Notes: generated from the letters alone by a model not told the origin. A stretch of 64,000 nucleotides of DNA from a virus (IMGVR_UViG_3300042559_001801); one strand, 5' to 3'; shown: positions 5,388 to 28,933, numbered from the stretch's first letter. Translations and numbers: made by a program.

Positions 5388-5665
5388 TAGAGTATATTGA
5401 TGCAGAAGTGTATGCCGTTGCAGAAGTCATGCCAAGGTCACCTGTGCGGAAACAGGTATGGAATGGTGAACGGTTTGTGCCAATCCTATTGTACAGGATA
5501 AAAGGATATCCAGGCATGGCTGCAGAAAACTGGTTGCTGAAAAATTTTGGTCACGCAGGAATACATCGAGACGGAACATACTGGGACTACAGCAGCGCCG
5601 GGGACTTTATGTTGATGGATGAAAAAGTATATACATGGTATCAAATGAAATGGGGCAACCGATGA
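5369..5665 (+). CDS. hypothetical protein (98 aa)
   Basis: ATG at 5369 is a later start within track ORF 5357-5665. Its stop TGA (5663-5665) overlaps the epimerase ATG (ATGA). Confidence 0.4.
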   Translation: MGRNQVIEYIDAEVYAVAEVMPRSPVRKQVWNGERFVPILLYRIKGYPGMAAENWLLKNFGHAGIHRDGTYWDYSSAGDFMLMDEKVYTWYQMKWGNR

Positions 5666-9470: not shown

Positions 9471-10602
9471 GATTAGAATAGACGAGATTTACAATAATAT
9501 TTTTTGGCCTTGGCTGCAAAAAAATAAGCCAGGTACAAGATTGTTTTTTTGTGATCCACCGGGCTCTACTAGCCCTGACTCTCTATTTAACTTAGGGAAC
9601 GATGACATTGTAGAAACCGACTATGTGTGGATGCACGACCAAGAACCTTGTTGGGTAGATGACTATTCGTCATTATTTGACGAGATAAAAATACGCAATG
9701 AGGACATAGGCGGACATTGGAATGAAGACGGTACAAAATGGATTGAAATTTTTCCAAATCCTAGCGGGCATGTTGTTGTTAGCGAACAAGGCGAATATGT
9801 CGAACAACTGTGTAAAAAGTACGGCTGGAAAAGTCATTATTATTTTTATCATGGCTGGGCTTGTCAGGACTGGTTTCGTGGCTACGATAAATCATTTCTA
9901 ATTCCCAGAGCAAGAGACCGCGCACCTACAAAAACTTTCATGAGTCCCAATCGAATTGTGGGCGGACGTCGTGATCATCGTGTGTTGTTTTTGTATAACA
10001 TATTTAAACAGCAGTTGGAGCATAATCATATCAGTGCGCCACGAGTTTGTCAATTTGAAAATGTTGACATAAGTCAAGTGGCCCGTAAGTATTGTAACAC
10101 ATACCCAGACATTTTGCAAGTGTTTGAACAGGCTACATTGCCCAGACTATTTGCAGGTGAAGAATCGCAACAGATGACCAGCTGTTGGCTCACAAACTTT
10201 AGTGAAGCACAAGACAGTTTGGTGTATGTGCCAACTGAAACAGTTTATTTTGGCCGTAGAACACACATAACAGAAAAAACATTCAAAGCCATTGCTTTAG
10301 AAATGCCGTTTGTGTTGGTTGCGCCAGCGCACAGTTTAGAGTACATGCGCAGTTACGGATTTAAAACATTTGATGGTATTTTTGATGAAAGCTATGATCT
10401 TGAGACTGACGATATACTACGAGTGGAAAAAGTCACCCAGGTGTTAAAAGATCTAGACAATCTTAGTGATCAAGAACGACAACAAATACATCGTGCATGC
10501 ATACCCATAGTGGAACACAATTTTAGACATTTTTATCGTGGTGGCCTATCACATGTGTTGTGGGCAGAATTAACCGGAATGCTGGATGGGCTACTCAAAT
10601 AA
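9469..10602 (+). CDS. GT10-like (alpha-1,3-fucosyltransferase-motif) glycosyltransferase, paralog 1
   Basis: The C-terminal region ITEKTFKAIALEMPFVLVAPAHSL...GFKTFDGIFDESYD matches the GT10 fucosyltransferase motif pattern (xTEKxxxAL..G.VPVVxG...SFIxxxDFxS). The same region is shared with 10586-11779 and 21987-23093. Confidence 0.55.
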   Translation: MIRIDEIYNNIFWPWLQKNKPGTRLFFCDPPGSTSPDSLFNLGNDDIVETDYVWMHDQEPCWVDDYSSLFDEIKIRNEDIGGHWNEDGTKWIEIFPNPSGHVVVSEQGEYVEQLCKKYGWKSHYYFYHGWACQDWFRGYDKSFLIPRARDRAPTKTFMSPNRIVGGRRDHRVLFLYNIFKQQLEHNHISAPRVCQFENVDISQVARKYCNTYPDILQVFEQATLPRLFAGEESQQMTSCWLTNFSEAQDSLVYVPTETVYFGRRTHITEKTFKAIALEMPFVLVAPAHSLEYMRSYGFKTFDGIFDESYDLETDDILRVEKVTQVLKDLDNLSDQERQQIHRACIPIVEHNFRHFYRGGLSHVLWAELTGMLDGLLK

Positions 10603-11779
10603 CTTTGTAGCCAACTGTATTGTCAAAGGCAAAGCATATCCAGAATTGGCACAGTGGTCTGCTGATCCTTACACTCCTGCTTGGAGACAATTTGTTCAGC
10701 ACTGGCCCAATACAGTGCCTGTTGAACTGTATGAACATTTTAATACACATGGCATTGACTATAACTTGTGCGATATTAACAAAGCAGATGGCGCTGCGGT
10801 ACCATACTACGCTATAGGCATAGGATTTTTTAACTTTGATGTTGATTACTTTGAATTAATGTCGTCTACAACTCGTCAGCAATTGCAGCAAGAACAATTG
10901 ACTGTGTTGTTCTACTATCACGAAGGCGATAATCCGTATCATATCAACCAGCGGCTAGATGAACTGTGTCAACGTCATTTGTTACCGCCAAATTGTTACC
11001 GGTTCGTCAGTGGCAACACAGCGGCCGACAATATCAAAAACTTTGTGTACTTTCCAGATCACGAACTGTTATACTGGCATCGCAATCAGCAAATTGCTCC
11101 AACCCCCATACACTACCATCATCGAACACACAATTTTACTGTGCTCAGCAGAACACACAAGTGGTGGCGAGCCACTGTGATGACTGACCTACATCGTGCA
11201 GGACTATTAGAAAACAGCTACTGGAGTTACGGAACTGAGATAGCATTGGATGAGTCCGAAACAGACAATCCCATTGAAGTAGATACATTGGGCATTCGTT
11301 CTGACATTGCAGAATTTTTATCCAATGGTCCATACACTTGTGATGCAAAAACTGCATCACAACATAACGATCATCACTTGATTGAAACTGACCACTACAC
11401 AGAAAGTTACTGCAACATTGTGCTGGAAACACATTTTGATGCTGACGGATCTGGTGGCGCATTTCTTACTGAAAAAACATTCAAAGCAATCAAACACGGT
11501 CAACCTTTTGTTGTTGTTGGCTGCCCGGGAAGTTTGGCAGCACTGAGAAAATTGGGTTACAGGACATTTGACCATGCTATCGACAACAGTTATGATGCCA
11601 TAACAGACAACACTCAACGCTGGACAGCAATCAAAGCAGCAATAACCAAATTAAAGTCGCAAGACTTGCATGCCTGGTTTGAATCTTGTAGAAGTGATAT
11701 TGAACACAACCAACAGTTATTTTGCAGCACAAAAGTGGACAGATTAAATACCCTATTAGAAAGATTATGTAATGATTAA
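10586..11779 (+). CDS. GT10-like glycosyltransferase, paralog 2
   Basis: It carries LTEKTFKAIKHGQPFVVVGCPGSLAALRKLGYRTFDHAIDNSYD. The gene overlaps the previous one by 17 nt and its stop TAA overlaps the next ATG (ATGATTAA). Confidence 0.55.
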   Translation: MGYSNNFVANCIVKGKAYPELAQWSADPYTPAWRQFVQHWPNTVPVELYEHFNTHGIDYNLCDINKADGAAVPYYAIGIGFFNFDVDYFELMSSTTRQQLQQEQLTVLFYYHEGDNPYHINQRLDELCQRHLLPPNCYRFVSGNTAADNIKNFVYFPDHELLYWHRNQQIAPTPIHYHHRTHNFTVLSRTHKWWRATVMTDLHRAGLLENSYWSYGTEIALDESETDNPIEVDTLGIRSDIAEFLSNGPYTCDAKTASQHNDHHLIETDHYTESYCNIVLETHFDADGSGGAFLTEKTFKAIKHGQPFVVVGCPGSLAALRKLGYRTFDHAIDNSYDAITDNTQRWTAIKAAITKLKSQDLHAWFESCRSDIEHNQQLFCSTKVDRLNTLLERLCND

Positions 11780-12791
11780 CTCATATACCAGCTGGCAACC
11801 TTTAGAAGAAGTTATTGTGGGTCGTGCCTACAGCCCAGAATACTTTGATTTTATTGACAATGCTCAAGTGCGAAATCAACTGCAACAAATTCTAAGTGAG
11901 ACTGAAGAAGATTTAACCAACTTACAAAAGACCATTGAAACATTTGGCGCTCGTGTCAGACGACCAAATCTTCCAGACATACATCAATTTCAGCAACAAC
12001 AATCCAGTGGCGGCGGCGCACCATTGCCGCCACTGACACCTAGAGACTGGCAAATCAGTCTTGGTCAAAAGCTATTGCGTGTGTTACCAATGACAGAACT
12101 AGACGAAATCTGTGCAGAGTATACTGATCAAGTGGTTAACCCGCATGGAAAAACATGGGATCCAGATTGTATATTGAATGGTGCCAGTGCCAGTTGTATT
12201 GTGCGTGTGGGGCAGGATGTGTTCTTTGACAACAGCGATTATTTGAAGCCTGAACAAACCAGATGGATTGTTGACAATTGTCTTGGTCCCGAGTATCGCA
12301 TACACGAAGCCATCACAGACGGACACGGTGATGCAGTATTTGCTATTCTCAAACCTGGTGTAATTTTATCCAGTAAACATGACGCACAGTTGCATCTTGC
12401 CACAGACTTTCCCGGATGGGAAGTGTTAAAAATTTGGGATAGCAGCATTTGGGCTGCAATGGAAGTGGGCAAGTTCAAATACGAACAAAGCCCGGGGGCA
12501 TGGTATGTGCAGGGACAAACACCCACAGCAGAATTTACAGACTTTGTAAACACCTACTTGAACAAGTGGACTGGATTTGTTGCCGAAACAGTGTTTGATG
12601 TCAACTGTTTAGTGTTGGATGAACAGAATGTTATCTTCAGTGCCTACAACAGAGATGTGTTTGATTTTTGTAAAAAACACAAGATCAATCCCATCATTAG
12701 CGAACTACGACACAGTTATTTCTGGGACGGCGGCATTTCATGTTGCACACAAGATTTAACACGAAAAGGTGGATTAGAAAGTTATCTATAA
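11772..12791 (+). CDS. amidinotransferase-superfamily protein (scyllo-inosamine/glycine amidinotransferase-like)
   Basis: The C-terminal FWDGGISCCTQDL matches the GGxxHCxTxD-type catalytic-Cys region of amidinotransferases (ADI/AGAT/StrB1). Length is 339 aa. Confidence 0.5.
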   Translation: MINSYTSWQPLEEVIVGRAYSPEYFDFIDNAQVRNQLQQILSETEEDLTNLQKTIETFGARVRRPNLPDIHQFQQQQSSGGGAPLPPLTPRDWQISLGQKLLRVLPMTELDEICAEYTDQVVNPHGKTWDPDCILNGASASCIVRVGQDVFFDNSDYLKPEQTRWIVDNCLGPEYRIHEAITDGHGDAVFAILKPGVILSSKHDAQLHLATDFPGWEVLKIWDSSIWAAMEVGKFKYEQSPGAWYVQGQTPTAEFTDFVNTYLNKWTGFVAETVFDVNCLVLDEQNVIFSAYNRDVFDFCKKHKINPIISELRHSYFWDGGISCCTQDLTRKGGLESYL

Positions 12792-12803: not shown

Positions 12804-13592
12804 TCACTGCACCACTGGCAATTCTGTTGTGTCACTGATATGATTGTACATTAGATCTTTTACTGTATCTAATCTCTTTGATTTGTTTTCTGAACCCAAA
12901 ACTATCACTGCAAATATCTGCTTGTTTCTTTCTACTAGCAAGGCCACGCACCAGCCGGCTGGATTGGTAAAGCCTGTTTTACTGACCTGTATGTTGTCAA
13001 AATCAAACAACAATGGCTGATTGGTATTGGGTAAAGAGATTACTCGAATGCGTTTTTTAAAATGCGATTCAATTTGAATCTGTCGTTGCACACTGATTTC
13101 TCGAACTAGCACATATGTGCCAGCAGCCGTTACCAAAGTACCCATGTCTCCTGCGGTACCCAAATTGTTTCGACTTAGGCCCGACGGATCTTGAAAGCTG
13201 GTGCTGGTCATGCCCAATGCTGCTGCACGACGATTCATAGCACGAATAAATGCTGTTCGTCCACCAGGATAGTCTTGTGCCAATGTTTCTGCTGCTGCAT
13301 TGTCGCTGCGAACCAGCATGGCATCAAACAACTGGCGGCGTGTGTATAGACCAGCTGGTAAATTGCTGCCTACACGATTGCTAAGTTTTACACTGCGACT
13401 CAGCACAGGATCGTGGTCCAGGGCCACTATTGCTGTCATCAGTTTGGTAATAGATGCAATGGGCCTAACACGGTTGGCCTGTTGATTTAGCACAATGGTG
13501 TCTTGAGTTTGATTGTAGACCCAGACACTGGTGGCAGCATTTGCCCAGCCAGTGGCCGCAAGTACTAATGCTGTTATAAACGGTAGTTTCAT
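12804..13592 (-). CDS. secreted D-alanyl-D-alanine endopeptidase/carboxypeptidase (peptidase S11, PBP7/PbpG-like)
   Basis: The signal peptide is MKLPFITALVLAATGWANA. Active-site motifs SxxK (ASITKLMTAIVALD), SxN (RSDNAAAE) and KTG (SKTGFT) are in canonical order. An AAGG RBS precedes the start. Confidence 0.8.
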   Translation of the reverse strand: MKLPFITALVLAATGWANAATSVWVYNQTQDTIVLNQQANRVRPIASITKLMTAIVALDHDPVLSRSVKLSNRVGSNLPAGLYTRRQLFDAMLVRSDNAAAETLAQDYPGGRTAFIRAMNRRAAALGMTSTSFQDPSGLSRNNLGTAGDMGTLVTAAGTYVLVREISVQRQIQIESHFKKRIRVISLPNTNQPLLFDFDNIQVSKTGFTNPAGWCVALLVERNKQIFAVIVLGSENKSKRLDTVKDLMYNHISDTTELPVVQ

Positions 13593-13600
13593 ACCTTATT

Positions 13601-14149
13601 TTAAGAAAACCGCCAGTAACTTGAAACTCTAATGGTGCCCTCTGGCACTGGATTAAACATGGCATGCCACAGCAGCGGCTGACTGCCGTCAGCAGCCAAG
13701 TGATTAAGCATGATATAGCCCGAATTGGGCCGGCTTAGAAATTGATACAGTAGGTTCTCTGGGTGTTTGTAACGATAAAATCCAGTGCCATATGCCTCGC
13801 TGGGCACTGTCCAGTACAACTGCATGCTGTTAGGTACATGTCCGTCGGTGTGCATTGCAACATCAAATCCAGGAACATCTATCCAGAAGTGGCCACCCAT
13901 TGATTTAAACTCTGTGCCCAGTGCAGTATTAATTTCAGGCAAGCAATGATTGATGTATCTGCTGTAACGCTGAGCAGTGACGTCGTCCCAATTGACTTGC
14001 CGACGAGGCCAAGACTCTTGTCCGCTGCTTAAACTGGTGGACACGGCGGACCAGTCTGTGCTGACTATTTCATCTGCTTGTTCTTGGGGCAGCAAGTCGT
14101 CGACTTGCCAAAGTCTGGCACGATCATCAACTTGTGTAAATTTGGCCAT
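13601..14149 (-). CDS. hypothetical protein (182 aa); possible HxD...H metal-binding (cupin/dioxygenase-like) protein
   Basis: HTDGH lies about 55 aa before MLNHLAADG. The start ATG overlaps the carbamoyltransferase stop (TAATG). Confidence 0.45.
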   Translation of the reverse strand: MAKFTQVDDRARLWQVDDLLPQEQADEIVSTDWSAVSTSLSSGQESWPRRQVNWDDVTAQRYSRYINHCLPEINTALGTEFKSMGGHFWIDVPGFDVAMHTDGHVPNSMQLYWTVPSEAYGTGFYRYKHPENLLYQFLSRPNSGYIMLNHLAADGSQPLLWHAMFNPVPEGTIRVSSYWRFS

Positions 14150-15663
14150 TATGAATGGACCTTTACTCCGTACAATTGTTCAAATCGATCAGCGTCGGCA
14201 CGATCATTAACAACAGGCTCTCCGCGTATGTTAAGACTGGTGTTCAGCAGCATGGGACAGCCGGTCATTACAAACCACTTTTCCAAGAGTTCTCTAATGC
14301 CTGAACCATCCGCAGGAACTGTCTGCACTCTACTAGTGCCGTCATGATGCACAATAGCAGGAAAAAGCTCAGGATACCAGCAGTTGGCGACTGCTTGCAT
14401 ATACCTACTATGGCTGAAACCCCTAGGCATATCAAAATACTGATCAGCGTATTCTTCAAGGATAACTGGTGCAAATGGTCTGAATTTTTGTCTGCGTTTG
14501 ATCTCATTTACTCGATCCTTTATTTCCGGGCCGCGAGGGTCTGCTAGTAAACTCCTATTGCCTAACGCACGTGGGCCGAACTCGGCGCGTCCCGACGCCA
14601 CGCCCACAATACCATGCTGCAATAGATGATCCAGCAGCTGATTAACAGGATATTTACCACCAATGCTATCGCCCAAATAAGCGTCAGTCCAATCAATGCG
14701 ACCACCGTAAGCCAACGCTGCGGCGCCAAGACTGCTGCCACCATCGCCTGGGCAGGGCATGATCCAAATATTGTCAAAATAATTTCCAATCCGTTGGTTG
14801 GCACTACAGTTAAGGGCAACACCACCCATGTACACTAGATTGTTGCTCCAGTTGAATTGTTTTGCACGAAACATTACATTCAAAATAAGGTCTTCTGCTA
14901 GAGCCTGTGCCCCGGCAGCAATATCAAACTCTGAATAATCATTTAGATATTCAGCTGCCAGACCTGTGTGCAGATTATCTTTGAAACGAATTTCATATTC
15001 ATTGTCGACGAGATCGTAGCGCATTCGATTGCTGATATTGTTTTGTCCATATGCAGCCATGCCCATCAGGATGTATTCTTCGTCCAAGGGTCGTAGACCC
15101 ACACGAGCTGTGACTGCGCTGTAAAACAAACCTATGCTGTGCGGATACCCGCGGGACCAAAGTTTTTGATAAGTTGCTCGACCCGAAGAATTGTATTCAG
15201 CACCCCAGATGGTTATAGTATCTAGTTCTCCAACAGCATCTATCACAACCACCGTGGCTCGATCATAGGGGCTGGTCTGGAATCCGGCGGCGGCGTGGGC
15301 AATATGGTGTCCTGTGTAACTGTGTCTAGCATGTAATAAAGCACTGAGATGTGGGCCAGCAGATAGATGTTTACGGAGATACTGCCCAAGAGTAAAAGAA
15401 TTAAGATCCAATGCTTCATGATATTGTCCGGAATAAAGTTGTTGTATTTTTTTGACCCATGGACGTTCGTAATAAGCAACCTGGTCCGGTGTGCCGTGAC
15501 GCAAGGCTGCTGCCACTAGTTCATCATTTAGGTGTGCGTCATTCTTGATCTTGCTATAGCGTTCTGCATGTCCAGCAAACAGCACAGATCCGCCGGAGTC
15601 AATCATGCTGACAGCAGCATCGTGGTAACCGGCGCTGATTCCCAAATACTTTTTTAATTTCAT
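14149..15663 (-). CDS. NodU/CmcH/TobZ-family O-carbamoyltransferase
   Basis: The N-terminus LGISAGYHDAAVSMIDSGG, HHIAHAAAGF and a C-terminal Carbam_trans_C-like region (FRPFAPVILEE...) are present. Length is 504 aa. Confidence 0.85.
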   Translation of the reverse strand: MKLKKYLGISAGYHDAAVSMIDSGGSVLFAGHAERYSKIKNDAHLNDELVAAALRHGTPDQVAYYERPWVKKIQQLYSGQYHEALDLNSFTLGQYLRKHLSAGPHLSALLHARHSYTGHHIAHAAAGFQTSPYDRATVVVIDAVGELDTITIWGAEYNSSGRATYQKLWSRGYPHSIGLFYSAVTARVGLRPLDEEYILMGMAAYGQNNISNRMRYDLVDNEYEIRFKDNLHTGLAAEYLNDYSEFDIAAGAQALAEDLILNVMFRAKQFNWSNNLVYMGGVALNCSANQRIGNYFDNIWIMPCPGDGGSSLGAAALAYGGRIDWTDAYLGDSIGGKYPVNQLLDHLLQHGIVGVASGRAEFGPRALGNRSLLADPRGPEIKDRVNEIKRRQKFRPFAPVILEEYADQYFDMPRGFSHSRYMQAVANCWYPELFPAIVHHDGTSRVQTVPADGSGIRELLEKWFVMTGCPMLLNTSLNIRGEPVVNDRADADRFEQLYGVKVHS

Positions 15664-15761
15664 TTGTAGATAAACGGATCTCGTTTACGAAGTTCTTTGA
15701 GTTTTTTACGATAACGTATTTCTAAGCGAATACGGCTAATTAAATTTTTAATCCAGTTCAT
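15660..15761 (-). CDS. micro-ORF, 33-aa highly basic peptide
   Basis: The product MNWIKNLISRIRLEIRYRKKLKELRKRDPFIYK fills the 94-nt gap. Both ends are ATGA-coupled (15758-15761 and 15660-15663). It is below the track cutoff. Confidence 0.3.
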   Translation of the reverse strand: MNWIKNLISRIRLEIRYRKKLKELRKRDPFIYK

Positions 15762-16861
15762 GGAGTTTTCCTTGATGAATAGTCATAGCCCGGGCGCATC
15801 ATATCAATTTGTTTTTGCTTGTAATCAGCGTCGGTCCAACAGTAATCAAATGTACTGACGACACCGTCTATTTCTATCTTGTATATATCCAAATGCGAAC
15901 TCAGTATATCCCAAATAGCCTGATAATCAGTTGTGCCGAAACTTTGCTGTAACTGCACTTGTCCAATGGGCAGGTATCCTAAACTCAATGCTGAATCTTC
16001 GGGGTCGCGTCCATTGGCCTGCAACCACCGTTTAAATTCGTCTTGTTGATTGTTGTGCCACGGTTGATTGCCATTGTATACCACATCGTTGCCCCATTCT
16101 ATGTCAAACTCTCCGCTGTAGTATTTTAATTCTGTAATAGCTTCGCATACTGTTGCAGTAAGTTCCGGAGCATGTTCGTCACGAAACACTTCGAATAGTG
16201 TTTTGCCTATCTGTGCCCAGTGCATATAAACACCGCCCAACACACGGTCGTATCCGTTTGTTACAAAGCCCGATCTATGTGCAGGTTTTAGATTGTAACG
16301 AGCTGCTGCTAAGAATGTAGTAATTTGACTGGGGCGCAGCCAATAAGGCGTAGTGTTTGCTTTGCGCTGACTGAGAATCAGTGACTCCATTTCGTGACAG
16401 ATATTGTTCAACTGTCTTATGGCATACTTGGTATCATAGTCGGCCCGTTGATAATAGTTGCTTAAATTGTTTACGGTACCTTGCAGCACTTCAAAGTGGT
16501 TGTGAAGCCTGTTCAACATGTCGTGGTTGACATGTTGTACAATTTTGTCAGGATTTTGTGACCATGGACCTGCTGTTGTAACCGTAGCAGGCGAGTATGT
16601 TTCTTTAATTTTGTAGTCATCAAAGAAGTTGTTTACTACACTGGCCGCTTGGTTGACTTCGTTGCACAGGTAATCAAGTGTGCGAGCTGTTTTGGAAAAT
16701 CCCATAAAACAAAAGTTTTTTTCCAACAGGTTGCCAGACTGTAGCAGTGTTTTGAGAGCAGGTATCCAATCTTGTGCCAATTCATTGTCTGCGGGCAGTA
16801 TGGTATAGTCAACCTGATCGCTATGTTTCAACGGATTGCGTAGTACAATTTTAACAGTCAA
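15758..16861 (-). CDS. hypothetical protein (367 aa)
   Basis: Track ORF. The apparent start is TTG (complement of 16859-16861) with a GGTGGA RBS 7 nt upstream. No ATG occurs before residue 53. Confidence 0.5.
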   Translation of the reverse strand: MTVKIVLRNPLKHSDQVDYTILPADNELAQDWIPALKTLLQSGNLLEKNFCFMGFSKTARTLDYLCNEVNQAASVVNNFFDDYKIKETYSPATVTTAGPWSQNPDKIVQHVNHDMLNRLHNHFEVLQGTVNNLSNYYQRADYDTKYAIRQLNNICHEMESLILSQRKANTTPYWLRPSQITTFLAAARYNLKPAHRSGFVTNGYDRVLGGVYMHWAQIGKTLFEVFRDEHAPELTATVCEAITELKYYSGEFDIEWGNDVVYNGNQPWHNNQQDEFKRWLQANGRDPEDSALSLGYLPIGQVQLQQSFGTTDYQAIWDILSSHLDIYKIEIDGVVSTFDYCWTDADYKQKQIDMMRPGYDYSSRKTP

Positions 16862-18143
16862 TTTGATTCCACCATGTTAACACATCAGGTCGGCTGGCCA
16901 GTATGTCGGCCATTGTAAATTTATCTTCACGAATTTGTTCTAGTTTTAACACACGCTGCTTGCCTCGAACAAGTCCTGCTTGCCAGGTGTCGGGCCATTG
17001 TTCTTCAAAGGTTGGGCGGGTTTTTAATTGTACCAGGATTGCTTGCACAGCTCCAGAACAAGAGGCTATCAATTCATCCAGCCACGGGTCAAGCAGGTGC
17101 CGCGGCAGAGCCAATGGGCTCATCACAATGTCAGGAGAAAACGCAAATACCACTTTTGCTAAGATATCGGTGTCTGTTTGTTGTGCAAGTTGCACAATGT
17201 TTTCAATTTCAAACATTCCTGGCAAGGTGAGAGTAAAGTCGATTCTGACCTGGCGTCTGTGAGTTCTTGCTGCAACTGCTCTATCGTAATTTTTGCGCCA
17301 GCCAGCATAGTCAAGGCCTGTTCTAATATATTCGCCAATGCGTTGTGTACCATCGAGACTCGCACAGATTTGCCAATCACGAAGGCCATGTAGAATCCCA
17401 TCAAAGAGATCAATGCCACGATAATTAATTCTCGAAAGGTTAGTATTATATCTCGCATAGACTTTATGTCCATCTCCAAGTTCAACAATGCGTTTCATAT
17501 AGCGCCAATGTTGTTCGTACATCAAGGGTTCGCCACCAACCCAATACACTTCTTCAACGCGGTGTTCTTCAACTGCCTGCGCAAATTCTGCTTCGATTTG
17601 TTGATCTTGAAACTGAGAGATATCCTTTCTGACAGCAGGTTGCATCCAATTGTTCTTTGAATTGGACCAATCAATCATGTTGTGTTGGCGCTGTTCGCTT
17701 TCCCATGCACTGCTCAACATGTCACCGCATGTACGACATTTGAAATTGCACAGGTTACTGAATCTGTAGTCCCAACTCACTGGCAGCATGCTGGTGCTGC
17801 CGTCTGCATCAGTGGTTTCCCAAATGCTATCATACTTATGTTTGAACATACTCCAGAAATAGCTGCGGTAAACATCGGTGTTTAGAAGTTTGCTGTTGCA
17901 TACATCACATTCTGGCAGTGTTTCTCCGGCCATCATACGGCGACGCACACTCCGCATGTGTTCACTGTTCCAGTGTTGATCCAGTGTGATGGGAGTATAT
18001 TTGCCTGAGCCGGCGGCTGTGTCAATGTACTGTGTGAAACTTTGTGCAGGCTCACGGCTGGCACAGCACATTCTGCGTTCAGTTTGTGGACTCAGGTAGG
18101 TGTGAGTCCACGGCGCCATGCAAAGTGTTTCAGGCTTTGACAT
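16851..18143 (-). CDS. radical SAM enzyme with N-terminal Cys-rich domain (subfamily A)
   Basis: It has the CxxxCxxC motif CNFKCRTCG, the GGEPLM motif and YNTNLS (anSME-like TNG motif). The N-terminal domain is C-x17-CC (CMAPW...MCC) plus CDVC. ATG 18143 was chosen; the track start 18149 is TTG. Confidence 0.8.
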   Translation of the reverse strand: MSKPETLCMAPWTHTYLSPQTERRMCCASREPAQSFTQYIDTAAGSGKYTPITLDQHWNSEHMRSVRRRMMAGETLPECDVCNSKLLNTDVYRSYFWSMFKHKYDSIWETTDADGSTSMLPVSWDYRFSNLCNFKCRTCGDMLSSAWESEQRQHNMIDWSNSKNNWMQPAVRKDISQFQDQQIEAEFAQAVEEHRVEEVYWVGGEPLMYEQHWRYMKRIVELGDGHKVYARYNTNLSRINYRGIDLFDGILHGLRDWQICASLDGTQRIGEYIRTGLDYAGWRKNYDRAVAARTHRRQVRIDFTLTLPGMFEIENIVQLAQQTDTDILAKVVFAFSPDIVMSPLALPRHLLDPWLDELIASCSGAVQAILVQLKTRPTFEEQWPDTWQAGLVRGKQRVLKLEQIREDKFTMADILASRPDVLTWWNQIDC

Positions 18144-19344
18144 AGTCAATCAATGCTGCAAACTCCGGCTCTACATCTGCTAGATTTTGTTGTCGTTTAC
18201 GGTCAAGATCAAGGATATTCATTCGTAGCAATTGTCCATCCAAACTGTTGCCACGATTCATAAATTCTGCGGCACTGACAAATTCTGACAGTATGTTAGC
18301 AGGAACATCAGCCCGGGTCAATTGTTTTGTAATCGCTGTTTTGGCTGATTCAGGCAGGGTACTGATGCTGAAGTAATAGGCATCATGCATCATGTTCCAG
18401 TATATAAAATCAAACTTTTGCTGTATTAACCATTGGGCCACTGTTTCAAGATAATACACATTGAACACATTGATGGTACAACAGGCCTGCAATGTAATGT
18501 TGCTGTTGCGACTGCGTAGTTGTCTAAAGCGTTCTGTATTTGCAACCACATCGGCCCAGACGGCATTGCTGCGCTGATATTCGAATCGGTGTTCAACATC
18601 GTCAATGCTTAGTGCAATTTCAACATGTTTGAAATGTTTCCAAATTGCTTCGCCTTCTTCGGGGTACTGTGTGCCATTGGTGTTGTAGTGTATTTCAACT
18701 TGTGCAGCGCGACCTGTGTCTACTAATTTTTGTAACAGTTGGAAATGTTCCTTGATCATGAACGGTTCACCACCAGTGAACTCAATGTAACGAATGTTGT
18801 CTAGATGTTGATCTAGATCCGTCCAAAATTCAGCACTTTCTCTTGGCCAGGCACCGTCTTTCAACATCTGATAAGCAAAGCTACTGCGAGTTTCTTCTGC
18901 ACGATTGAACCGAATTTCTTCTGCTGCAAACTGGCTGCTGCTCCAAGATCCACATATGCGGCATTTTAGATTGCAAATGTTGCCCAGTTTGAGATCAAGA
19001 AACATCAAGGGCATTGCATCTGCTGTCCACGACACATTGGAATCGAGCAGGTGTTTGAGTCTGTCTAGTGTATGCATGCGCTTGCTGGTACGCCCGGCTC
19101 GCTCTTCATTCCAGCAGCGGCGACAGTTTTGTGGTTTTTTGCCAGCAAGAAAATCTTCGCGCAGCGTTCGCATTGCTCGGCTATTTTGTATTTCCGTCAA
19201 GCTGGTGTTGGCCAACTTGTATTTGTTGCCGTCGTTGTCTTCAATCTCGTCAATGGCCAAACAACAAGGTCGTACTGTTCCCACTGGACTTGCTTCCAAG
19301 CTGATCCAAGGTAGTACACAAAAAGTATCATGGGGTATGTTCAT
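18130..19344 (-). CDS. radical SAM enzyme with N-terminal Cys-rich domain (subfamily A)
   Basis: Motifs are CNLKCRICG, FTGGEPFM, YNTNGT and an N-terminal CVLPW...PCC plus CRRCW. The start is ATGA-coupled to the upstream gene. Confidence 0.8.
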   Translation of the reverse strand: MNIPHDTFCVLPWISLEASPVGTVRPCCLAIDEIEDNDGNKYKLANTSLTEIQNSRAMRTLREDFLAGKKPQNCRRCWNEERAGRTSKRMHTLDRLKHLLDSNVSWTADAMPLMFLDLKLGNICNLKCRICGSWSSSQFAAEEIRFNRAEETRSSFAYQMLKDGAWPRESAEFWTDLDQHLDNIRYIEFTGGEPFMIKEHFQLLQKLVDTGRAAQVEIHYNTNGTQYPEEGEAIWKHFKHVEIALSIDDVEHRFEYQRSNAVWADVVANTERFRQLRSRNSNITLQACCTINVFNVYYLETVAQWLIQQKFDFIYWNMMHDAYYFSISTLPESAKTAITKQLTRADVPANILSEFVSAAEFMNRGNSLDGQLLRMNILDLDRKRQQNLADVEPEFAALIDYVKA

Positions 19345-20660
19345 TTGATAGGAATCCTGGTATCAGGCCGACGAAATTCTATAATGGATTCAAGTTCTGG
19401 TACTACACCAAGCAATGATTCACTGCGAGACCAATCCAGATCATTTACTGAATCCCAAAAATCTTTCAACAAGTGTGAATTGTCTGTGGCCATCATAAAT
19501 GCTATGGCGCCTTCAAATCCGCCCACAGCTCGTTGTATCTGATCAATAGGACGCAGATATTCAATGTGTTCTTCAAACTGCTGTTTAAATTTTAATTTAA
19601 GGTGCATCGGCAACATGTCTATACGATAATCCTGCGGCCCTTGTAAAATATTCAGATTGAAGTCTTGTGCTTTGATGAACCCAGAATCGATCATGTAACG
19701 GTGGAATTTAACAAAGTTCCATATGTTCATCATACTCAGTGTGGGACTGATCATAAAATCTATATGCGGGCACTCGCGTTTTAGATCCCGTATATTTTGT
19801 TCTACCTGGGCCCAATCAGTTCCAGATCGTATAACTTCGGCCCGCTCGGCCATGTCATCCAGGCTGGCGGCCACACACACATTGGGAAAATGTTTCCATA
19901 GTTCCAGCACTGATTCTTTTTTATATCGCAGGTCGTTTAGATTGGTATTGTAAATCAGCCGCACTTCGGTGTTGCCTTTTTCTATCAGCAATTTTAAGAT
20001 GCGATTGTGTTCTTCCATGATCAATGGTTCGCCACCGGCAAAATAAATTTGTTCCAAATGCGGAATATGTTCTTGCATTTGCTCCCACACATCCTCCTCG
20101 TGCTGGCCTGCAAATTGCACTCGCGGTCGTAATGGTTTCCCCCACAGCTTAACATCGTCGTCGTACCAGCGACTGCTAAAAATACTGCCACAACTGCGAC
20201 ATTTGAGCTGACACATGTTGCTAAATCTCACATCCCAATAATGCAACCGCATGTCGGGCAAGCTACCATCTGGCAAAGTTTGATCTATTTCGTCGATGTA
20301 ATGTCCAAAATTCTTATTGCTGTTATTTCTCATGCTGGCAAATCCAGCGCCTTCCTGTTCGTAACAGTCGCCACACTGTTTACAAGATTTATCCGCCAAC
20401 ATATTGCGCCGCATTTCACGCATGGGCTCGTCGTTCCATATTTCCCGCATGGTGTTTTCTTTGAGATTTCCCACTGGATGTTCGGCTTTGCCTAAACAGC
20501 AAGGATATGCTCGACCGTCCGGCCATGCATGCAGATGTATCCAGGGAATCATGCAAAACACTTCCGACTCAATCAATTTATGCTGCTGATCCTTTGTTAT
20601 ATCTTCTAGTTTTATGTAGGATGGAATGCGGTCTTTCCAATTGTAGTTGCTAAGACTCAT
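19341..20660 (-). CDS. radical SAM enzyme with N-terminal Cys-rich domain (subfamily A)
   Basis: Motifs are CQLKCRSCG, FAGGEPLIM, YNTNLN and an N-terminal CMIPW...PCC plus CGDCY. ATG 20660 (ATGA-coupled) is preferred; an alternative ATG lies at 20675. Confidence 0.75.
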   Translation of the reverse strand: MSLSNYNWKDRIPSYIKLEDITKDQQHKLIESEVFCMIPWIHLHAWPDGRAYPCCLGKAEHPVGNLKENTMREIWNDEPMREMRRNMLADKSCKQCGDCYEQEGAGFASMRNNSNKNFGHYIDEIDQTLPDGSLPDMRLHYWDVRFSNMCQLKCRSCGSIFSSRWYDDDVKLWGKPLRPRVQFAGQHEEDVWEQMQEHIPHLEQIYFAGGEPLIMEEHNRILKLLIEKGNTEVRLIYNTNLNDLRYKKESVLELWKHFPNVCVAASLDDMAERAEVIRSGTDWAQVEQNIRDLKRECPHIDFMISPTLSMMNIWNFVKFHRYMIDSGFIKAQDFNLNILQGPQDYRIDMLPMHLKLKFKQQFEEHIEYLRPIDQIQRAVGGFEGAIAFMMATDNSHLLKDFWDSVNDLDWSRSESLLGVVPELESIIEFRRPDTRIPIK

Positions 20661-21994
20661 AATGATTGATACCATTCTTTTAGGTTAGGAAATGTGTTGC
20701 TAAAGTTTTTGTTCCTGCGCACATCATATTGATCAAAGAACTGGCGAAAGTCGTTGTGTAACTTGGGCATGTCAAATGTGTCGCTGTGTGGAGTTTTAAC
20801 AATTTTCAAATAGTCAATCAATCTGCGAACATGATTCAGTTCAAATTCTTGACATGCTGATCTATTGTCAACTGATTCTTCCCACATGATCAAACAATTG
20901 CGAGCAGAGGACAACAAGGCAGGTGATAATACCAACGGAGATTGAAAACTTGGAAAGCGTAATATATTTAGTGTAAAATTAACTCGTTGTGTTCCGTAGG
21001 CTTTTTTTAATTTTATCAACTGTGTTAGGAATTCGGGCAATGTTTCTAAACACAATGCATTGATTGTACACATCACATGCACAGCACGAATATGATCGTG
21101 CTCCAACAATTCTTGAACATTGTGCATCCATAGATCATAGTCCAAGCCGTCTCTTATGTATTCAGCAGCCGAGCCTGTTGCTTCGCAACTGGTGTATATC
21201 TCTAGGTGTGGGATATCTTGAACTCGTTCAATGAACTCCTGTAGCTTGATGCGATCCATGCCCAGATTTGAATTGATTGCTAGACGAGTTTGACTGCGAC
21301 CTTGATTTGTTTTGAACCAGTCAATCAGCTTCCAGGTCTCACCGCTCATCAAGGGTTCGCCGCCGGTGATTCTCAGCTCTTGTAGTGTTCGGTGGAGGTC
21401 TGATTCCCACCAAGCAAAGAACGCTTCAACATATGGATTCGTCTCACCAAAGCGGTATAGTTGACTGCTATCGTGAGTGTGAGTAAAGTGGTTGCGCCCA
21501 TCAGACACCAAATTGGCATAGCCGCCGTGCTTTCGAATGTCATTGACCCATGTGCTACTGAAAGCAGGGTTACAATAGCTACAAGCAAATTGGCAAGTGC
21601 GGTCGAACGCAATTTCAAGTGTGCGAAGATTGACGTCTTCATTGTACGGAGTTTGGTAAGCTTCATCAAGTGCCTTTATAGGGTAAATTTTACTTTTGTA
21701 TACACGGTCGCTGACAGCATCAGTGGCCATGTCTTCGATCTTCCAGCAGTATTCACAACCGGCAGGGCGATCACCTGCCAGCATCTTCTTGCGATCATCT
21801 TTTTTCTTTGCTGTGTTATGCAGTGCAGCCGGATTGGTTTTTAGTTCTTCGAGATCAACAGCATGTGCTGGTGGATGATGACAACTGGTTGTTTGCCCGG
21901 AACCCAACCATATAGTGGCATTGTACCATTTGGCTGCACAGAAACTAGCACTTTTGGTATCCAAGACCTGGTGCTTGAAATCTAGATCATTCAT
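20657..21994 (-). CDS. radical SAM enzyme with N-terminal Cys-rich domain (subfamily B)
   Basis: Motifs are CQFACSYCNPAFSSTW, ITGGEPLM, INSNLG and an N-terminal CAAKW...SCHHPP plus CEYCW. Confidence 0.8.
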   Translation of the reverse strand: MNDLDFKHQVLDTKSASFCAAKWYNATIWLGSGQTTSCHHPPAHAVDLEELKTNPAALHNTAKKKDDRKKMLAGDRPAGCEYCWKIEDMATDAVSDRVYKSKIYPIKALDEAYQTPYNEDVNLRTLEIAFDRTCQFACSYCNPAFSSTWVNDIRKHGGYANLVSDGRNHFTHTHDSSQLYRFGETNPYVEAFFAWWESDLHRTLQELRITGGEPLMSGETWKLIDWFKTNQGRSQTRLAINSNLGMDRIKLQEFIERVQDIPHLEIYTSCEATGSAAEYIRDGLDYDLWMHNVQELLEHDHIRAVHVMCTINALCLETLPEFLTQLIKLKKAYGTQRVNFTLNILRFPSFQSPLVLSPALLSSARNCLIMWEESVDNRSACQEFELNHVRRLIDYLKIVKTPHSDTFDMPKLHNDFRQFFDQYDVRRNKNFSNTFPNLKEWYQSL

Positions 21995-23093
21995 TGAAAT
22001 GTTTGTTTATAAATTGTTTAAAGCGGGCCGGAAATTCAGATCGAACTCGAGTTCGCATTTCCGCAAGATGTTGCTGGTTGTATTTACATACATTATAGCA
22101 TTCTTTTAAGAAACTTGCAAGGTCTTGTTGACATAAATCTTTAACCACACGACTCACTTGCACCATTCTATCTTGATTGTTTGCTATTTCATCAAACCTC
22201 TCGTCAATCACATGTCCGAATGTTTGAAATCCTAGATTATGCATATCTCTATAATATCCCTGATTGGCAACCGCAATCCATGGATGTCCAATTGCAATGG
22301 GTTTCCATATTTTCTCTGTTCTAAAACTGTAGCGATAGTTTTGAACAGTTTCGGTCACCAAGCTAAAATAAGTATTGGTATACTGTGCCGGAACTAGATA
22401 CACGTCTCCCCATATGTCAGACTCGAACAAATATTTTTTTACATTTTCATCAGTCTGAGATATGTCAACATTGAACCGATCAAGTTCGTATTGCCGATCG
22501 AGCAATTTCACCGGGCCATTGGCAGGATCTAAATTGCTCCATAATGCTGTATCAAGTACGTCGGCTAACTGTTCAATCATAAATTTTCTATGCTGTCTTC
22601 CTTTTCCGTTCAAAAATAAAAATTTATATGGTCGATTGGTTGAATAGGTGCGTTTATAAGTTTTTATAGCGTTGATATTTTCATCGTAGTCTAGTATTTT
22701 AGGAAGAAAATTTTCATATACAAGATGCAGATATTGTGCCGGAACATCGCCGCCGGTTAATAATAGTATTTTTCCTTTTTTGAGTAACTCAAGTAGATCA
22801 GTATTTTCATTTCCATTGGCCAGTTTAGTACGAAATTCTGGCCGGCCGCAACGATTTATTAAAGTTGCCGATCCTTCACTTGGTTCAGCATATATAGCTT
22901 TTATAGTATTAGTTTTTACCAACTCTACAATTTTTTCAAAATTTTCTCCAAACTCAGCGTGACTTATCAAATATATAGCATTGGGAACCAAAGTGTGTTC
23001 TTGAAAAATAGAAAATTTATCGTCGGCATACACAGCAAGTTCATCGTGTATTCCACATCCTGTGTCTATTATTAATTTACGATTGCCGAGCAT
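21987..23093 (-). CDS. GT10-like glycosyltransferase, paralog 3
   Basis: It carries FRTEKIWKPIAIGHPWIAVANQG...GFQTFGHVIDERFDEI. ATG 23093 was chosen; the track start 23120 is GTG. Confidence 0.55.
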   Translation of the reverse strand: MLGNRKLIIDTGCGIHDELAVYADDKFSIFQEHTLVPNAIYLISHAEFGENFEKIVELVKTNTIKAIYAEPSEGSATLINRCGRPEFRTKLANGNENTDLLELLKKGKILLLTGGDVPAQYLHLVYENFLPKILDYDENINAIKTYKRTYSTNRPYKFLFLNGKGRQHRKFMIEQLADVLDTALWSNLDPANGPVKLLDRQYELDRFNVDISQTDENVKKYLFESDIWGDVYLVPAQYTNTYFSLVTETVQNYRYSFRTEKIWKPIAIGHPWIAVANQGYYRDMHNLGFQTFGHVIDERFDEIANNQDRMVQVSRVVKDLCQQDLASFLKECYNVCKYNQQHLAEMRTRVRSEFPARFKQFINKHFNE

Positions 23094-24501
23094 GGTACTC
23101 ACATTCCTTCCACCAGGCACTCATTTCTGGAAACACGCTCAAGAAGTCTGTACCGTGTCTGTGATCTGCTTCTGTAAAGAACCGATAGAAGTCAGCTTTA
23201 TTTCGTTGCAGGTACGCAGAGTCTAATCGTTGTCCATCACGCATCCAGGCTATGTCGCGATCAAGACGAGATATTTCATAATCTTTGAAACCGTGCAATC
23301 TGGTTGCTTCTGTTTCGATACCGTGTTGCATTGATATTTTTAATTTTTCCAACTGTGCTGCATAGCTTTCTGGCAACAATTGTAAACTTTGCCAAGCGGG
23401 TTGTCGCAGCACTGGAGTATCAAACCACACACGCTGATATGTGCTGCTGTGTTTTTTTCTAAGTTCTATAATGCCATCTAACAGCTCGGGTAAACTTGTC
23501 ACACTTAGGTTATTCATTGTCACAATAAATGTCACACTGTTGCGCGAAGGAACTTCGGTTAAGAACTGATTTACTCTGCTCCACACCAAATCAAAATTCA
23601 TGCCATGGCGCATGTACTCGGCCTGACGGCCCCATCCGTCTAGACTGATGTATTGCATAAAGTGCTCAACCACTCCTTCTTGGCACAATTGTTTGGTGTA
23701 GGCCAAATAGCGTTGCCAACTTTTTTCATCCACACTGAAGTTGCTGGTTACATTGAGATGCAGATTAGATTTGGGATTGGCCAGCACATAGTCAAACACA
23801 CGATAGGTATTCCGATCCAGCAATGGTTCGCCGCCGGTCATTCTGAAGTGCTCCAACTCGGGATACAAGGTGGGCCACCACTGCCAAAACGCTTCCACAT
23901 AGGGATTGTGCTCACGAACAGGAATGGATTTACGGTCACCTGCAAAGTGCTCAGGCGCATTGTGCGGGATGGATGTAGGATAAGCACCGTGCCGATCAGT
24001 TTCTTGTTGCCAGGTGCTGCTGAACTGTGGGCTACAATAGCTGCAAGCAAGGTTACAAGCGTTGTTGAAATTTACTTCAACATAACTGGGAGTAATGTCA
24101 GCGTCCCACTCTGCATTCACAATGGTGCCAAAGTCTTTGGCAGCCCACGGTTCTCCTGATCTGTAATGTCGGTCACTGAGTTTGCCATTGTCTTCCATTG
24201 TCCAACAGTAGCTGCATTCAGCAGGACGTGTGCCCTCTAGCATTTGTTTACGCTGTTGTTTTTTATAATCAGTGTTGTGTAATGCAGCAGGATTGCGACC
24301 AATGGCATCTACAGGAATACGATGCAAGGGCGGGTGGTAACAACTGTTGTTAAGGCCAGTGGTCAGGTGTAGACTGACTTGTTTCCATTTGGCCAGACAC
24401 ATGCTGGGACTAACAGTATCTAACTGTTGTTTGATTAGTTCGGCATCACTTAAAAACTTTGATTTAAAGTCTTCGTTGACTTCGTCACCTTTGTTTTGCA
24501 T
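23077..24501 (-). CDS. radical SAM enzyme with N-terminal Cys-rich domain (subfamily B)
   Basis: Motifs are CNLACSYCSPQFSSTW, MTGGEPLL, VTSNFS and an N-terminal CLAKW...SCYHPP plus CSYCW. Confidence 0.8.
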   Translation of the reverse strand: MQNKGDEVNEDFKSKFLSDAELIKQQLDTVSPSMCLAKWKQVSLHLTTGLNNSCYHPPLHRIPVDAIGRNPAALHNTDYKKQQRKQMLEGTRPAECSYCWTMEDNGKLSDRHYRSGEPWAAKDFGTIVNAEWDADITPSYVEVNFNNACNLACSYCSPQFSSTWQQETDRHGAYPTSIPHNAPEHFAGDRKSIPVREHNPYVEAFWQWWPTLYPELEHFRMTGGEPLLDRNTYRVFDYVLANPKSNLHLNVTSNFSVDEKSWQRYLAYTKQLCQEGVVEHFMQYISLDGWGRQAEYMRHGMNFDLVWSRVNQFLTEVPSRNSVTFIVTMNNLSVTSLPELLDGIIELRKKHSSTYQRVWFDTPVLRQPAWQSLQLLPESYAAQLEKLKISMQHGIETEATRLHGFKDYEISRLDRDIAWMRDGQRLDSAYLQRNKADFYRFFTEADHRHGTDFLSVFPEMSAWWKECEYHARQS

Positions 24502-27940: not shown

Positions 27941-28933
27941 TTAAGCAACTGTGGCAGCAATACTTGGTGTGCCCCATGCTGCACTGGTCAGGTAAGTGGC
28001 ACTTGGTAAAAACAGTGTAACTATTGTGGCAGGTGCAGTACCAAATGTACTGAATGGTGAACCAGTAGCAGTACCACCAGAGATGATGTTGGTACCACCC
28101 GGTGCTGCATCGCCACCTGGATCATTCCACAATGTGGTCAATACCAGTTGTGTGCCGCTGCCTGCTGTTTTGGCGTTGATAGAAATGCTCTGACCAGTGT
28201 ACGGTACTGTATCGCCAAATTGACGATAAATCAGTTGATCGGAGGTTGAGAAATCATACCATCCCACTGTGGTTGCCAATGTGCCGGGTGTTCCAGTTCC
28301 ACCAATTTTAGTTGTACCAGTATATGCTGTGCCTGCAATGGTCTGTGTGGCTATACCGCCGGTGATATAAATGTCGCCAACTAGTGTGGTGGCCAAGTCA
28401 TTCCACTCAGGATCGCCATCGTTGCCAGTTGAAGATTTGTTGCATTCCCATTTGATGCGGCCGCCAGCATTGAAAAAATATCGTGCAGCATCAGCACTGG
28501 CCCAGGTTATGGTGTGAGTGAATGTGATTGACCACGCAGAATCACCACTGCCGGTGCTGGTTGTTTTGCTTGATGTACCACTGAATGCAACAGTCTGCGC
28601 ACCACTGGCCACTGCATTACCACGGTTGGTAGTAATATTAGTAATATCTGTGTCTAAATTTGCTAAAATTGCAATGGTGCTACCCACAGTGGGATTTGAT
28701 CTGCTGGTGATAGTTGTGCCAGTTTGGCTGGCCATTGAGCTAATTCTATTGTTCAATGTGGCCCATTGTGTGGCTGTGATAGTTGCATTAGTGGAGACGG
28801 TGCTCACTGCTGTTTCACCATAGCCAAATGATGCGGCACCTGTTGACCAGATTCCATTTATATTGGCAGCGTTAGTGCTGATAAAACCGTTGTAGTCTGC
28901 TGCTACTATGGTATTTCCTGCTGAATAAGTCAT
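27941..28933 (-). CDS. tail fibre/structural protein (Gly/Thr/Ser/Ala-rich beta-type sequence)
   Basis: The 330-aa product is low-complexity and rich in T, S, G and N. It sits in the fibre module and has an AAGGGAAAC RBS. Confidence 0.5.
   Translation of the reverse strand: MTYSAGNTIVAADYNGFISTNAANINGIWSTGAASFGYGETAVSTVSTNATITATQWATLNNRISSMASQTGTTITSRSNPTVGSTIAILANLDTDITNITTNRGNAVASGAQTVAFSGTSSKTTSTGSGDSAWSITFTHTITWASADAARYFFNAGGRIKWECNKSSTGNDGDPEWNDLATTLVGDIYITGGIATQTIAGTAYTGTTKIGGTGTPGTLATTVGWYDFSTSDQLIYRQFGDTVPYTGQSISINAKTAGSGTQLVLTTLWNDPGGDAAPGGTNIISGGTATGSPFSTFGTAPATIVTLFLPSATYLTSAAWGTPSIAATVA

Follow-up and report, generated by a model that had tools for sequence, protein, structure and literature searches.

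Within a 64,000-nucleotide stretch of viral DNA (IMGVR_UViG_3300042559_001801, hereafter the window) lie six genes for radical SAM proteins with an N-terminal twitch domain (N_Twi_rSAM), five of them in an array interleaved with a glycosyltransferase gene. As predicted, all six are intact open reading frames in which the CxxxCxxC triad is present on re-translation, and the five array copies are packed head to tail with stops overlapping starts. Adjacent array genes overlap by 4-20 nt; reading the glycosyltransferase from its long GTG start raises the maximum to 44 nt. The array genes and others referred to below are:

5635-6630, plus strand: NAD-dependent sugar epimerase/dehydratase (SDR), a nucleotide-sugar enzyme (PF01370, 1.3e-44)
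6560-7678, plus strand: DegT/DnrJ/EryC1/StrS aminotransferase, a nucleotide-sugar enzyme (PF01041, 3.3e-55)
10586..11779, plus strand: paralog of the interleaved GT-B glycosyltransferase (HMM from the alignment labelled A3, E<=1e-20)
14149..15663, minus strand: NodU/CmcH-type carbamoyltransferase in the same gene string (Pfam Carbam_trans_N E 8.7e-34, Carbam_trans_C E 2.1e-46)
16851..18149, minus strand: A1, N-terminal-twitch radical SAM protein, 432 aa (alternative ATG at 18143)
18130..19344, minus strand: A2, N-terminal-twitch radical SAM protein, 404 aa
19341..20675, minus strand: A3, N-terminal-twitch radical SAM protein, 444 aa
20657..21994, minus strand: B1, N-terminal-twitch radical SAM protein of subfamily B, 445 aa
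21987..23120, minus strand: interleaved GT-B fold glycosyltransferase, 368-377 aa (probable start, ATG at 23093)
23077..24501, minus strand: B2, N-terminal-twitch radical SAM protein of subfamily B, 474 aa
59452..60942, plus strand: A4, N-terminal-twitch radical SAM protein, 496 aa (longer GTG reading from 59359)

An HMM scan of all window ORFs returned exactly these six N_Twi_rSAM copies (A1, A2, A3, B1, B2 and A4), and the genome of this phage carries a seventh full-length copy (L016:11921-13192, 244.5 bits) about 0.9 kb beyond the last position of the window. A4 is flanked by a gp55-like late sigma factor and an SbcD/gp47-like nuclease, a position that is identical in the 339.8-kb contig L016. 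It also carries an N-terminal extension of roughly 120 aa ahead of the twitch domain, for which Pfam gave zero matches. Searched against cultured phages (blastn, distant mode), the array DNA likewise had zero matches. The window contains 0 copies of TATAAATA, the late promoter motif of T4, which thus offers no guide to expression timing. A generic promoter and terminator scan gave counts no higher than chance, bar one pair, the single good hairpin-plus-promoter combination at 27918-27873.

Each protein has a single CxxxCxxC motif (CNFKCRTC in A1, CNLKCRIC in A2, CQLKCRSC in A3, CQFACSYC in B1, CNLACSYC in B2 and CNFKCRIC in A4) and one GGEP; in A1 these begin at residues 134 and 205. Together with the partial TIM-barrel fold, the triad and the SAM-binding GGEP place all six in the radical SAM superfamily, and their assignment to the SPASM/twitch-related group stands. 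In the six-paralog alignment (A1 numbering), four N-terminal cysteines (C10, C29, C81 and C84) and the three core cysteines are invariant, as are the SS pair, GGEP, N237, S264, E273 and R276. No cysteine after GGEP is conserved among the six proteins, and such positions vary in every paralog; the predicted combination of a Cys-rich N-terminal domain and absent C-terminal auxiliary cysteines is thus borne out. So is the division into two subfamilies: B1 is 33% identical both to B2 and to Ralstonia phage RsoM2USA gp349, and B2 is 35% identical to gp349 over 99% of the B2 length. Several motif details need amendment. The SS(T/R)W motif said to close the core stands directly after CxxxCxxC, and the xTN motif claimed for all six reads SN, not TN, in subfamily B. 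In the subfamily-A N-terminal motif, 'PCC' is 'MCC' in A1 and 'PW' is 'PF' in A4.

All six proteins score above the curated cut-off of 170 bits for NCBIfam NF033640 (N_Twi_rSAM, 'twitch domain-containing radical SAM protein'). Full-length scores are 279.1 (A1), 345.7 (A2), 400.8 (A3), 302.8 (B1), 322.3 (B2) and 292.0 bits (A4), and matches extend over profile positions ~1-398 across the six, corresponding to residues 7-412 of A1 and 16-442 of B1. The family has the same full-length order as the window proteins: N-terminal four-Cys twitch, CxxxCxxC, GGEP and a helical C-terminal region. Judged by these matches, the six are members of an already catalogued but functionally uncharacterised family. 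Pfam SPASM (PF13186, gathering score 21.5 bits) matches the N-terminus of three of the four subfamily-A proteins at 29.1-50.8 bits and that of the fourth at 19.1, just under threshold. SPASM covers residues 9-78 of A2 and Radical_SAM residues 120-281; in A4 the respective E values are 2e-10 and 6.5e-14.

Residues 182-257 of BtrN, which hold its four auxiliary ligands, aligned to NF033640 profile positions 18-89, and in this alignment the four N-terminal cysteines match the BtrN auxiliary-cluster ligands one for one. Because of this correspondence, the architecture can be described as a domain-order permutation of the BtrN/anSME type, and the N-terminal domain is identified by homology as a twitch (half-SPASM) domain with a predicted auxiliary [4Fe-4S] cluster. 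Twitch domains are truncated SPASM domains that form a C-terminal extension of the core (PMC9012708). In the canonical SPASM/twitch subgroup the auxiliary domain is C-terminal to the core; here it is N-terminal. The original prediction regarded the domain as unrecognised and as distinct from the BtrN arrangement. Neither view is compatible with the SPASM matches, the full-length NF033640 membership and the Cys-for-Cys alignment with the BtrN twitch domain, from which domain order alone differs. Novelty was also to be given up if a full-length match to a characterised family of known function emerged. The family found is catalogued, but without known function: neither the PDB nor the searchable literature yielded a function or a characterised member. 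Literature searches on N-terminal twitch/SPASM domains, on phage radical SAM enzymes with glycosyltransferases, and on the UbiA and asparagine synthase context returned nothing relevant. For annotation purposes, the Cys-rich domain at the N-terminus should be treated as a catalogued, permuted twitch domain and not as a new fold. A family profile search at E<=1e-30 gave 6,692 clusters (50% identity), and this large number is the size of the functional gap.

Identity between the paralogs is 21-33%, and to their 1:1 orthologs 64-87% (70-71% for A1). Ortholog dN is 0.10-0.31; dS is saturated, so no dN/dS ratio is given for the radical SAM genes. On these values the paralogs are ancient, and each is maintained individually. 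Tandem arrays of 3-7 copies occur in 80/80 related viral contigs checked in IMG/VR, and possession of such an array characterises a widespread clade of jumbo myoviruses, uncultivated and ~340-350 kb in genome size. In one relative (P0463), A2 is fused to an A3-like half, and double-domain N_Twi_rSAM proteins also occur. Both the natural A3-A2 fusion and the double-domain proteins argue for paralogs acting together.

The surroundings of the array point to sugars. The product of the interleaved gene has the two Rossmann domains of a GT-B fold. In other words, a glycosyltransferase is interleaved as predicted, but the proposed GT10 likeness is unsupported; a GT10 fucosyltransferase identity was rejected, as Pfam Glyco_transf_10 gave no match at E<=5. 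A PDB sequence search with this protein was empty. The window island also encodes the SDR, the DegT aminotransferase, an FkbM methyltransferase and the carbamoyltransferase, which is syntenic in L001 and L003. A DegT/StrS-family aminotransferase is also the pathway partner of BtrN. Counting against a glycan pathway, no recognisable nucleotidyltransferase, initiating transferase or flippase was found in the phage island.

Similar associations recur in other genomes. Vibrio phage K566 has the gene order rSAM-GT8-rSAM-rSAM-GT4-like-rSAM-GT8, an independent interleaving of four N_Twi_rSAM enzymes with GT8 and GT4-like genes. For bacteria, we drew the genomic context from a plasmid match and from contigs encoding family members. 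The bacterial loci (L009-L015) contain glycosyltransferases, Wzm/Wzt-type ABC transporters, RmlA/C-like enzymes, DegT aminotransferases and a carbamoyltransferase; the bacterial members, in other words, reside in polysaccharide loci. Some are fused to GT4 domains (P0165, P0168, P0176 and P0190) and others to CBM_4_9 (P0160, P0170 and P0181). Taken together, the phage arrays, the GT4/CBM fusions and the polysaccharide-locus context suggest radical sugar chemistry coupled to glycosyltransfer. Of the substrates originally proposed, a sugar is the best-supported guess, given the glycosyltransferase contexts, the GT4/CBM_4_9 fusions and the sugar-enzyme island.

The nearest characterised neighbours in sequence or fold, BtrN, BlsE, viperin and MoaA, all take hydrogen from a sugar or cyclitol ring. 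The window proteins score far under the family cut-offs for BlsE, viperin and MoaA; over the six proteins the maxima are 38.8 bits for viperin_w_prok (cut-off 180), 27.9 for moaA (284) and, for QueE, 22.6 (260). BtrN, the 2-deoxy-scyllo-inosamine dehydrogenase of the butirosin pathway (PDB 4M7T), likewise combines the core with a single four-Cys twitch domain, although its twitch is C-terminal and the window proteins are 130-220 aa longer, with an extra helical C-terminal domain. It performs a two-electron oxidation on a sugar-like ring, and four cysteines ligate its auxiliary cluster (PMC9012708). The auxiliary cluster of MoaA, in contrast, has three cysteines and an open Fe site (PMC9012708), and viperin is without one. 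The anSME/SPASM maturases (AtsB family, SkfB, SuiB and PqqE) share SNxCNxxCxxC, GGEP and Pfam SPASM with the window proteins. They differ in having a C-terminal seven-Cys SPASM domain, two auxiliary clusters and protein or peptide substrates, as against a single N-terminal four-Cys half-domain with no RRE domain or peptide partner.

We consider it reasonably likely that the array enzymes tailor sugars by successive radical reactions, as part of a glycan pathway encoded by the phage; both chemistry and target we infer through guilt by association. By analogy, the reaction type is probably a BtrN-like oxidation. Each enzyme would cleave SAM at its CxxxCxxC cluster, and the 5'-deoxyadenosyl radical would then take hydrogen from a carbon of the sugar, be this a nucleotide-sugar or part of a growing glycan. 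In line with the proposal for BtrN, the second electron could pass to the N-terminal cluster with its predicted full set of Cys ligands. This would give a keto-sugar, which later steps could epimerise, aminate or deoxygenate. Separate paralogs may act on separate residues or positions. With the interleaved GT-B glycosyltransferase and the island SDR, DegT aminotransferase, FkbM methyltransferase and carbamoyltransferase as partners, the outcome would be an unusual glycan, for which a virion protein, the host envelope or DNA are candidate acceptors.

Alternatively, the enzymes could hypermodify phage DNA or nucleotide precursors, perhaps producing a sugar-containing base that is extended by glycosyltransferases. 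The T4-like character of this jumbo phage fits such a role, as do a nearby ThyX and the resemblance of the core to the nucleotide-acting viperin, MoaA and QueE. So does the placing of A4 between the gp55-like sigma factor and the gp47-like nuclease, an interval that on the T4 map holds the DNA alpha-glucosyltransferase gene. Counter to this, the bacterial relatives occur in Wzm/Wzt polysaccharide export loci rather than DNA-modification loci, no hydroxymethylase or base-modifying transferase was recognised within the window, and the likeness of the interleaved gene to T4 beta-glucosyltransferase is of the generic kind shared among GT-B folds. We regard DNA or nucleotide substrates as unlikely. 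Somewhat less probable still is modification of an isoprenoid or polyprenyl-phosphate sugar carrier, and not of the glycan itself. A UbiA prenyltransferase, with or without a polyprenyl synthetase, adjoins family members in L009, L012, L013 and L015, but neither UbiA nor a prenyl synthase was found in the phage window, and the fusion partners are GT4 and CBM domains, not lipid enzymes. The weak matches to NF045702 (Tes) that would favour lipid-linked substrates reach E ~1e-3 and cover the core only.

The enzymes might instead be peptide (RiPP-type) maturases, introducing cross-links or epimerisation into a phage-encoded peptide or structural protein. This we rate as the least probable of the alternatives. 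The many partial NCBIfam matches to RiPP maturases are weak, confined to the core and at 15-55 bits against equivalog cut-offs of 300-855, and a Pfam search for an RRE/PqqD domain in the six proteins found none. A conserved 33-aa ORF within the gene string was a candidate precursor. It is, however, basic and Cys-free, its translational coupling is to the carbamoyltransferase and not to any radical SAM gene, and a bacterial locus encodes a small DUF5989 protein with a similar ...PFIY ending at the same place beside its carbamoyltransferase; we set this ORF aside as a RiPP precursor. Glycosyltransferases, moreover, dominate the bacterial and phage contexts, and the known fusions join the family to GT4 or CBM.

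Looking across the analysis, what is particular to this case within NF033640 is its phage setting, its arrays of 5-7 genes and the ~120-aa extension of A4. New here are the tandem arrays in 80/80 viral contigs, the 1:1 orthology of each paralog, the GT-B assignment of the interleaved gene and the glycosyltransferase-linked contexts in K566 and bacteria. To our knowledge, serial radical remodelling of a glycan has no described counterpart in phage biology. A broader and distinctly more speculative possibility is that N_Twi_rSAM proteins form a large class of enzymes for radical tailoring at the level of the glycan. Each would have a glycosyltransferase as its partner and would oxidise, epimerise or in some other way rewrite a sugar once it has been added. 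The globally distributed jumbo-phage clade might then deploy five to seven such enzymes one after another, so that a glycan, on virion fibres for instance, ends up heavily remodelled. If confirmed, radical chemistry on sugars coupled to glycosyltransfer would represent a new reaction class for glycan biosynthesis, and would explain a conserved ~8 kb block in a lineage of jumbo phages that is abundant and uncultivated.

The six radical SAM proteins encoded in the window are almost certainly members of a catalogued family, N_Twi_rSAM (NCBIfam NF033640, 'twitch domain-containing radical SAM protein'). All six match its model end to end, with scores of 279-401 bits where the curated cut-off is 170 bits, and every other NCBIfam family scores far under its own cut-off for all of them. 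The ORF list reproduces the originally predicted coordinates exactly.

Radical SAM ORFs and the interleaved ORF, from the ORF list
16851-18149, minus strand, radical SAM ORF 1 (paralog A1)
18130-19344, minus strand, radical SAM ORF 2 (A2)
19341-20675, minus strand, radical SAM ORF 3 (A3)
20657-21994, minus strand, radical SAM ORF 4 (B1)
21987-23120, 377-aa ORF between the fourth and fifth radical SAM ORFs (GT-B fold glycosyltransferase)
23077-24501, minus strand, radical SAM ORF 5 (B2)
59452-60942, plus strand, sixth radical SAM ORF (A4)

Scanned with an HMM, the full set of window ORFs yields exactly these six family members. Each carries one CxxxCxxC and one GGEP motif (6/6), which confirms the predicted radical SAM core; the motifs of the original prediction are present, with small corrections to their details. 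Invariant in the six-way alignment are four N-terminal Cys, the three core Cys and the SS pair directly after them, GGEP, N237, S264, E273 and R276. The Cys positions after GGEP differ in each of the six paralogs, so a SPASM or twitch motif is absent from the C-terminus. The 4-20 nt overlaps between neighbouring array genes point to a single operon.

The N-terminal domain had been described as unrecognised, a claim that is now refuted. In the subfamily-A proteins, Pfam assigns SPASM (PF13186) to the N-terminal part, followed by Radical_SAM. Compared with the PDB, the family profile retrieves BtrN, a radical SAM dehydrogenase of the butirosin pathway, by way of the twitch domain at its C-terminus; profile positions 18-89 align to BtrN residues 182-257, cysteine for cysteine in the C...C...CxxC pattern. 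The review PMC9012708 describes SPASM and twitch domains as extensions at the C-terminal end. In BtrN the twitch domain is C-terminal, whereas the homologous four-Cys twitch domain of the window proteins is N-terminal. Together with NF033640, these matches identify the domain, at the level of sequence, as a twitch domain relocated to the protein's front, in an architecture already catalogued. The window proteins are genuine members of that family.

Paralogs of one genome share only 21-33% identity. By contrast, two related contigs with identical gene order hold a 1:1 ortholog of every paralog, at 64-87% identity (dN 0.10-0.31; dS saturated). In IMG/VR, 80 loci encode a relative of A3 (49-85% identity), and every one of them has 3-7 family members in tandem within a 10-kb span: three copies in 3 loci, four in 11, five in 39, six in 19 and seven in 8. 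A 339.8-kb contig of the same phage (L016:11050-13192) adds two radical SAM genes after a Rad50-like gene, ~0.5-1.7 kb beyond the window end. One encodes a seventh, full N_Twi_rSAM member (423 aa, 244.5 bits); the product of the second, 292 aa long, is a partial radical SAM protein lacking CxxxCxxC, with a C-terminal twitch-like Cys motif. In the protein P0463 of a relative (805 aa, on a 4.6-kb Logan contig), an A3-like and an A2-like unit are naturally fused, with 48% identity to each and with both CxxxCxxC and both GGEP motifs intact; similar double-domain proteins are P0361, P0362, P0363 and P0365.

PA5oct, Atu_ph07 and RsoM2USA are distant relatives of the uncultivated jumbo myovirus to which the window belongs. 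Its core genes are T4-like; among the genes identified are those for the baseplate hub and wedge, the late sigma factor and an SbcD-like nuclease, and the same genes occur on contigs of 340-354 kb. A single 4,815-aa ORF (31086-45533, minus strand), presumably a giant fibre or structural protein, lies beside the baseplate genes after the 1,137-aa wedge protein (45533-48946). The radical SAM array sits within a sugar-metabolism island.

Other genes of the sugar island
2147-3007, FkbM methyltransferase
5635-6630, NAD epimerase/dehydratase
6560-7678, DegT-family aminotransferase
10586-11779, paralog of the interleaved glycosyltransferase
14149-15663, carbamoyltransferase

At the island's end lies an S11 D-alanyl-D-alanine carboxypeptidase gene (12804-13592, minus strand, Pfam E 1e-36), adjoined by an ATP-grasp-like gene (11772-12791) with a weak PylC-like N-terminal match. 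A conserved, basic 33-aa ORF (15660-15761, minus strand; MNWIKNLISRIRLEIRYRKKLKELRKRDPFIYK) overlaps the upstream gene's stop and the carbamoyltransferase start. Its C-terminal 21 aa are identical in the related viral contigs L001 and L003, and it has no match in Pfam or NCBIfam. In bacterial locus L014 the corresponding place beside a carbamoyltransferase is taken by a 49-aa DUF5989 protein ending ...APFIYTLF; the two are alike only in position and the ...PFIY ending.

Ahead of the gene string, at 27918-27873 (minus strand), are a hairpin terminator and a sigma-70-like promoter, both consensus matches only. The strong hairpin, AAAGGGCC-TTAG-GGCCCTTT plus a T-run, comes after the 27941-28933 gene and is followed directly by TTTACT-17-TATAAT, only ~7 nt upstream of the ATG at 27865. 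The sugar/radical SAM block may thus be a separate transcription unit. Ser/Thr/Ala/Gly-rich structural-type proteins are encoded beside the island (27941-28933 and 56256-58334, both minus strand); as pure speculation, these could be glycosylation targets.

A profile search returned 6,692 family clusters (50% identity) at E<=1e-30. Of the phages in culture, RsoM2USA encodes a subfamily-B ortholog, and a single distant copy is present in KVP40-like phages. Vibrio phage K566 (record positions 161548-169287) independently repeats the combination of radical SAM and glycosyltransferase genes: two GT8 genes and one GT4-like gene are interspersed with its four N_Twi_rSAM genes, one of which is annotated merely as hypothetical. 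Bacterial members are found in glycosyltransferase-rich loci, and some members carry fused GT4 domains or CBM_4_9 carbohydrate-binding modules.

Bacterial loci with family members
L009, GT2, GT4, GT39, polyprenyl synthetase, AsnB, UbiA, ABC transporter
L010, Wzm/Wzt, many glycosyltransferases, polysaccharide deacetylases
L011, GT2 and RmlA/C-like enzymes
L012, two tandem copies, UbiA and glycosyltransferases
L013, four tandem copies, UbiA and glycosyltransferases
L014, ABC transporter and carbamoyltransferase
L015, two copies, UbiA and two DegT aminotransferases

Gene order, fusions and recurrence in separate lineages thus all tie the family to glycosyltransferases, and the nearest characterised relatives (BtrN, BlsE, viperin and MoaA) take hydrogen from sugar or cyclitol rings. 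We consider carbohydrate tailoring the probable function of the array. Both the phage setting and the place where the sixth copy lies hint at hypermodification of DNA or nucleotides, but the bacterial contexts favour an exported polysaccharide and make it unlikely. UbiA neighbours family members in bacteria, yet the phage window is without UbiA, and we regard a lipid or polyprenyl substrate as quite improbable. Peptide (RiPP) maturation, whose one point in favour is a core-level resemblance, is most improbable: no RRE domain is present, and the conserved 33-aa ORF is coupled to the carbamoyltransferase.

For carbohydrate tailoring, BtrN-like oxidation specifically is a tentative, rather doubtful proposal. 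In BtrN four Cys ligate the auxiliary cluster and a two-electron oxidation is performed, while MoaA has an open Fe site (PMC9012708). The array enzymes would cleave SAM reductively and abstract hydrogen from a sugar carbon, either of an NDP-sugar or of a nascent glycan, and the product may come to lie on virion proteins, the host envelope or DNA; a fully ligated auxiliary cluster would then accept an electron, giving a keto-sugar by BtrN-type two-electron oxidation. This could be processed by DegT transamination, for example, or by epimerisation, methylation or carbamoylation, and separate paralogs may serve separate residues or positions. DegT transamination after radical oxidation is the logic of BtrN/BtrS.

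The searchable literature yielded no function or size for the family, no glycosyltransferase arrays or fusions and no jumbo-phage hallmark. The remaining interest lies in a very large family of this kind with recurring glycosyltransferase arrays and fusions, for which cultured K566 is a tractable experimental proxy. Conserved across a widespread clade of jumbo phages, the N_Twi_rSAM array is a hallmark of that clade, and a well-defined, testable lead for specialists in radical SAM enzymes and phage glycobiology.
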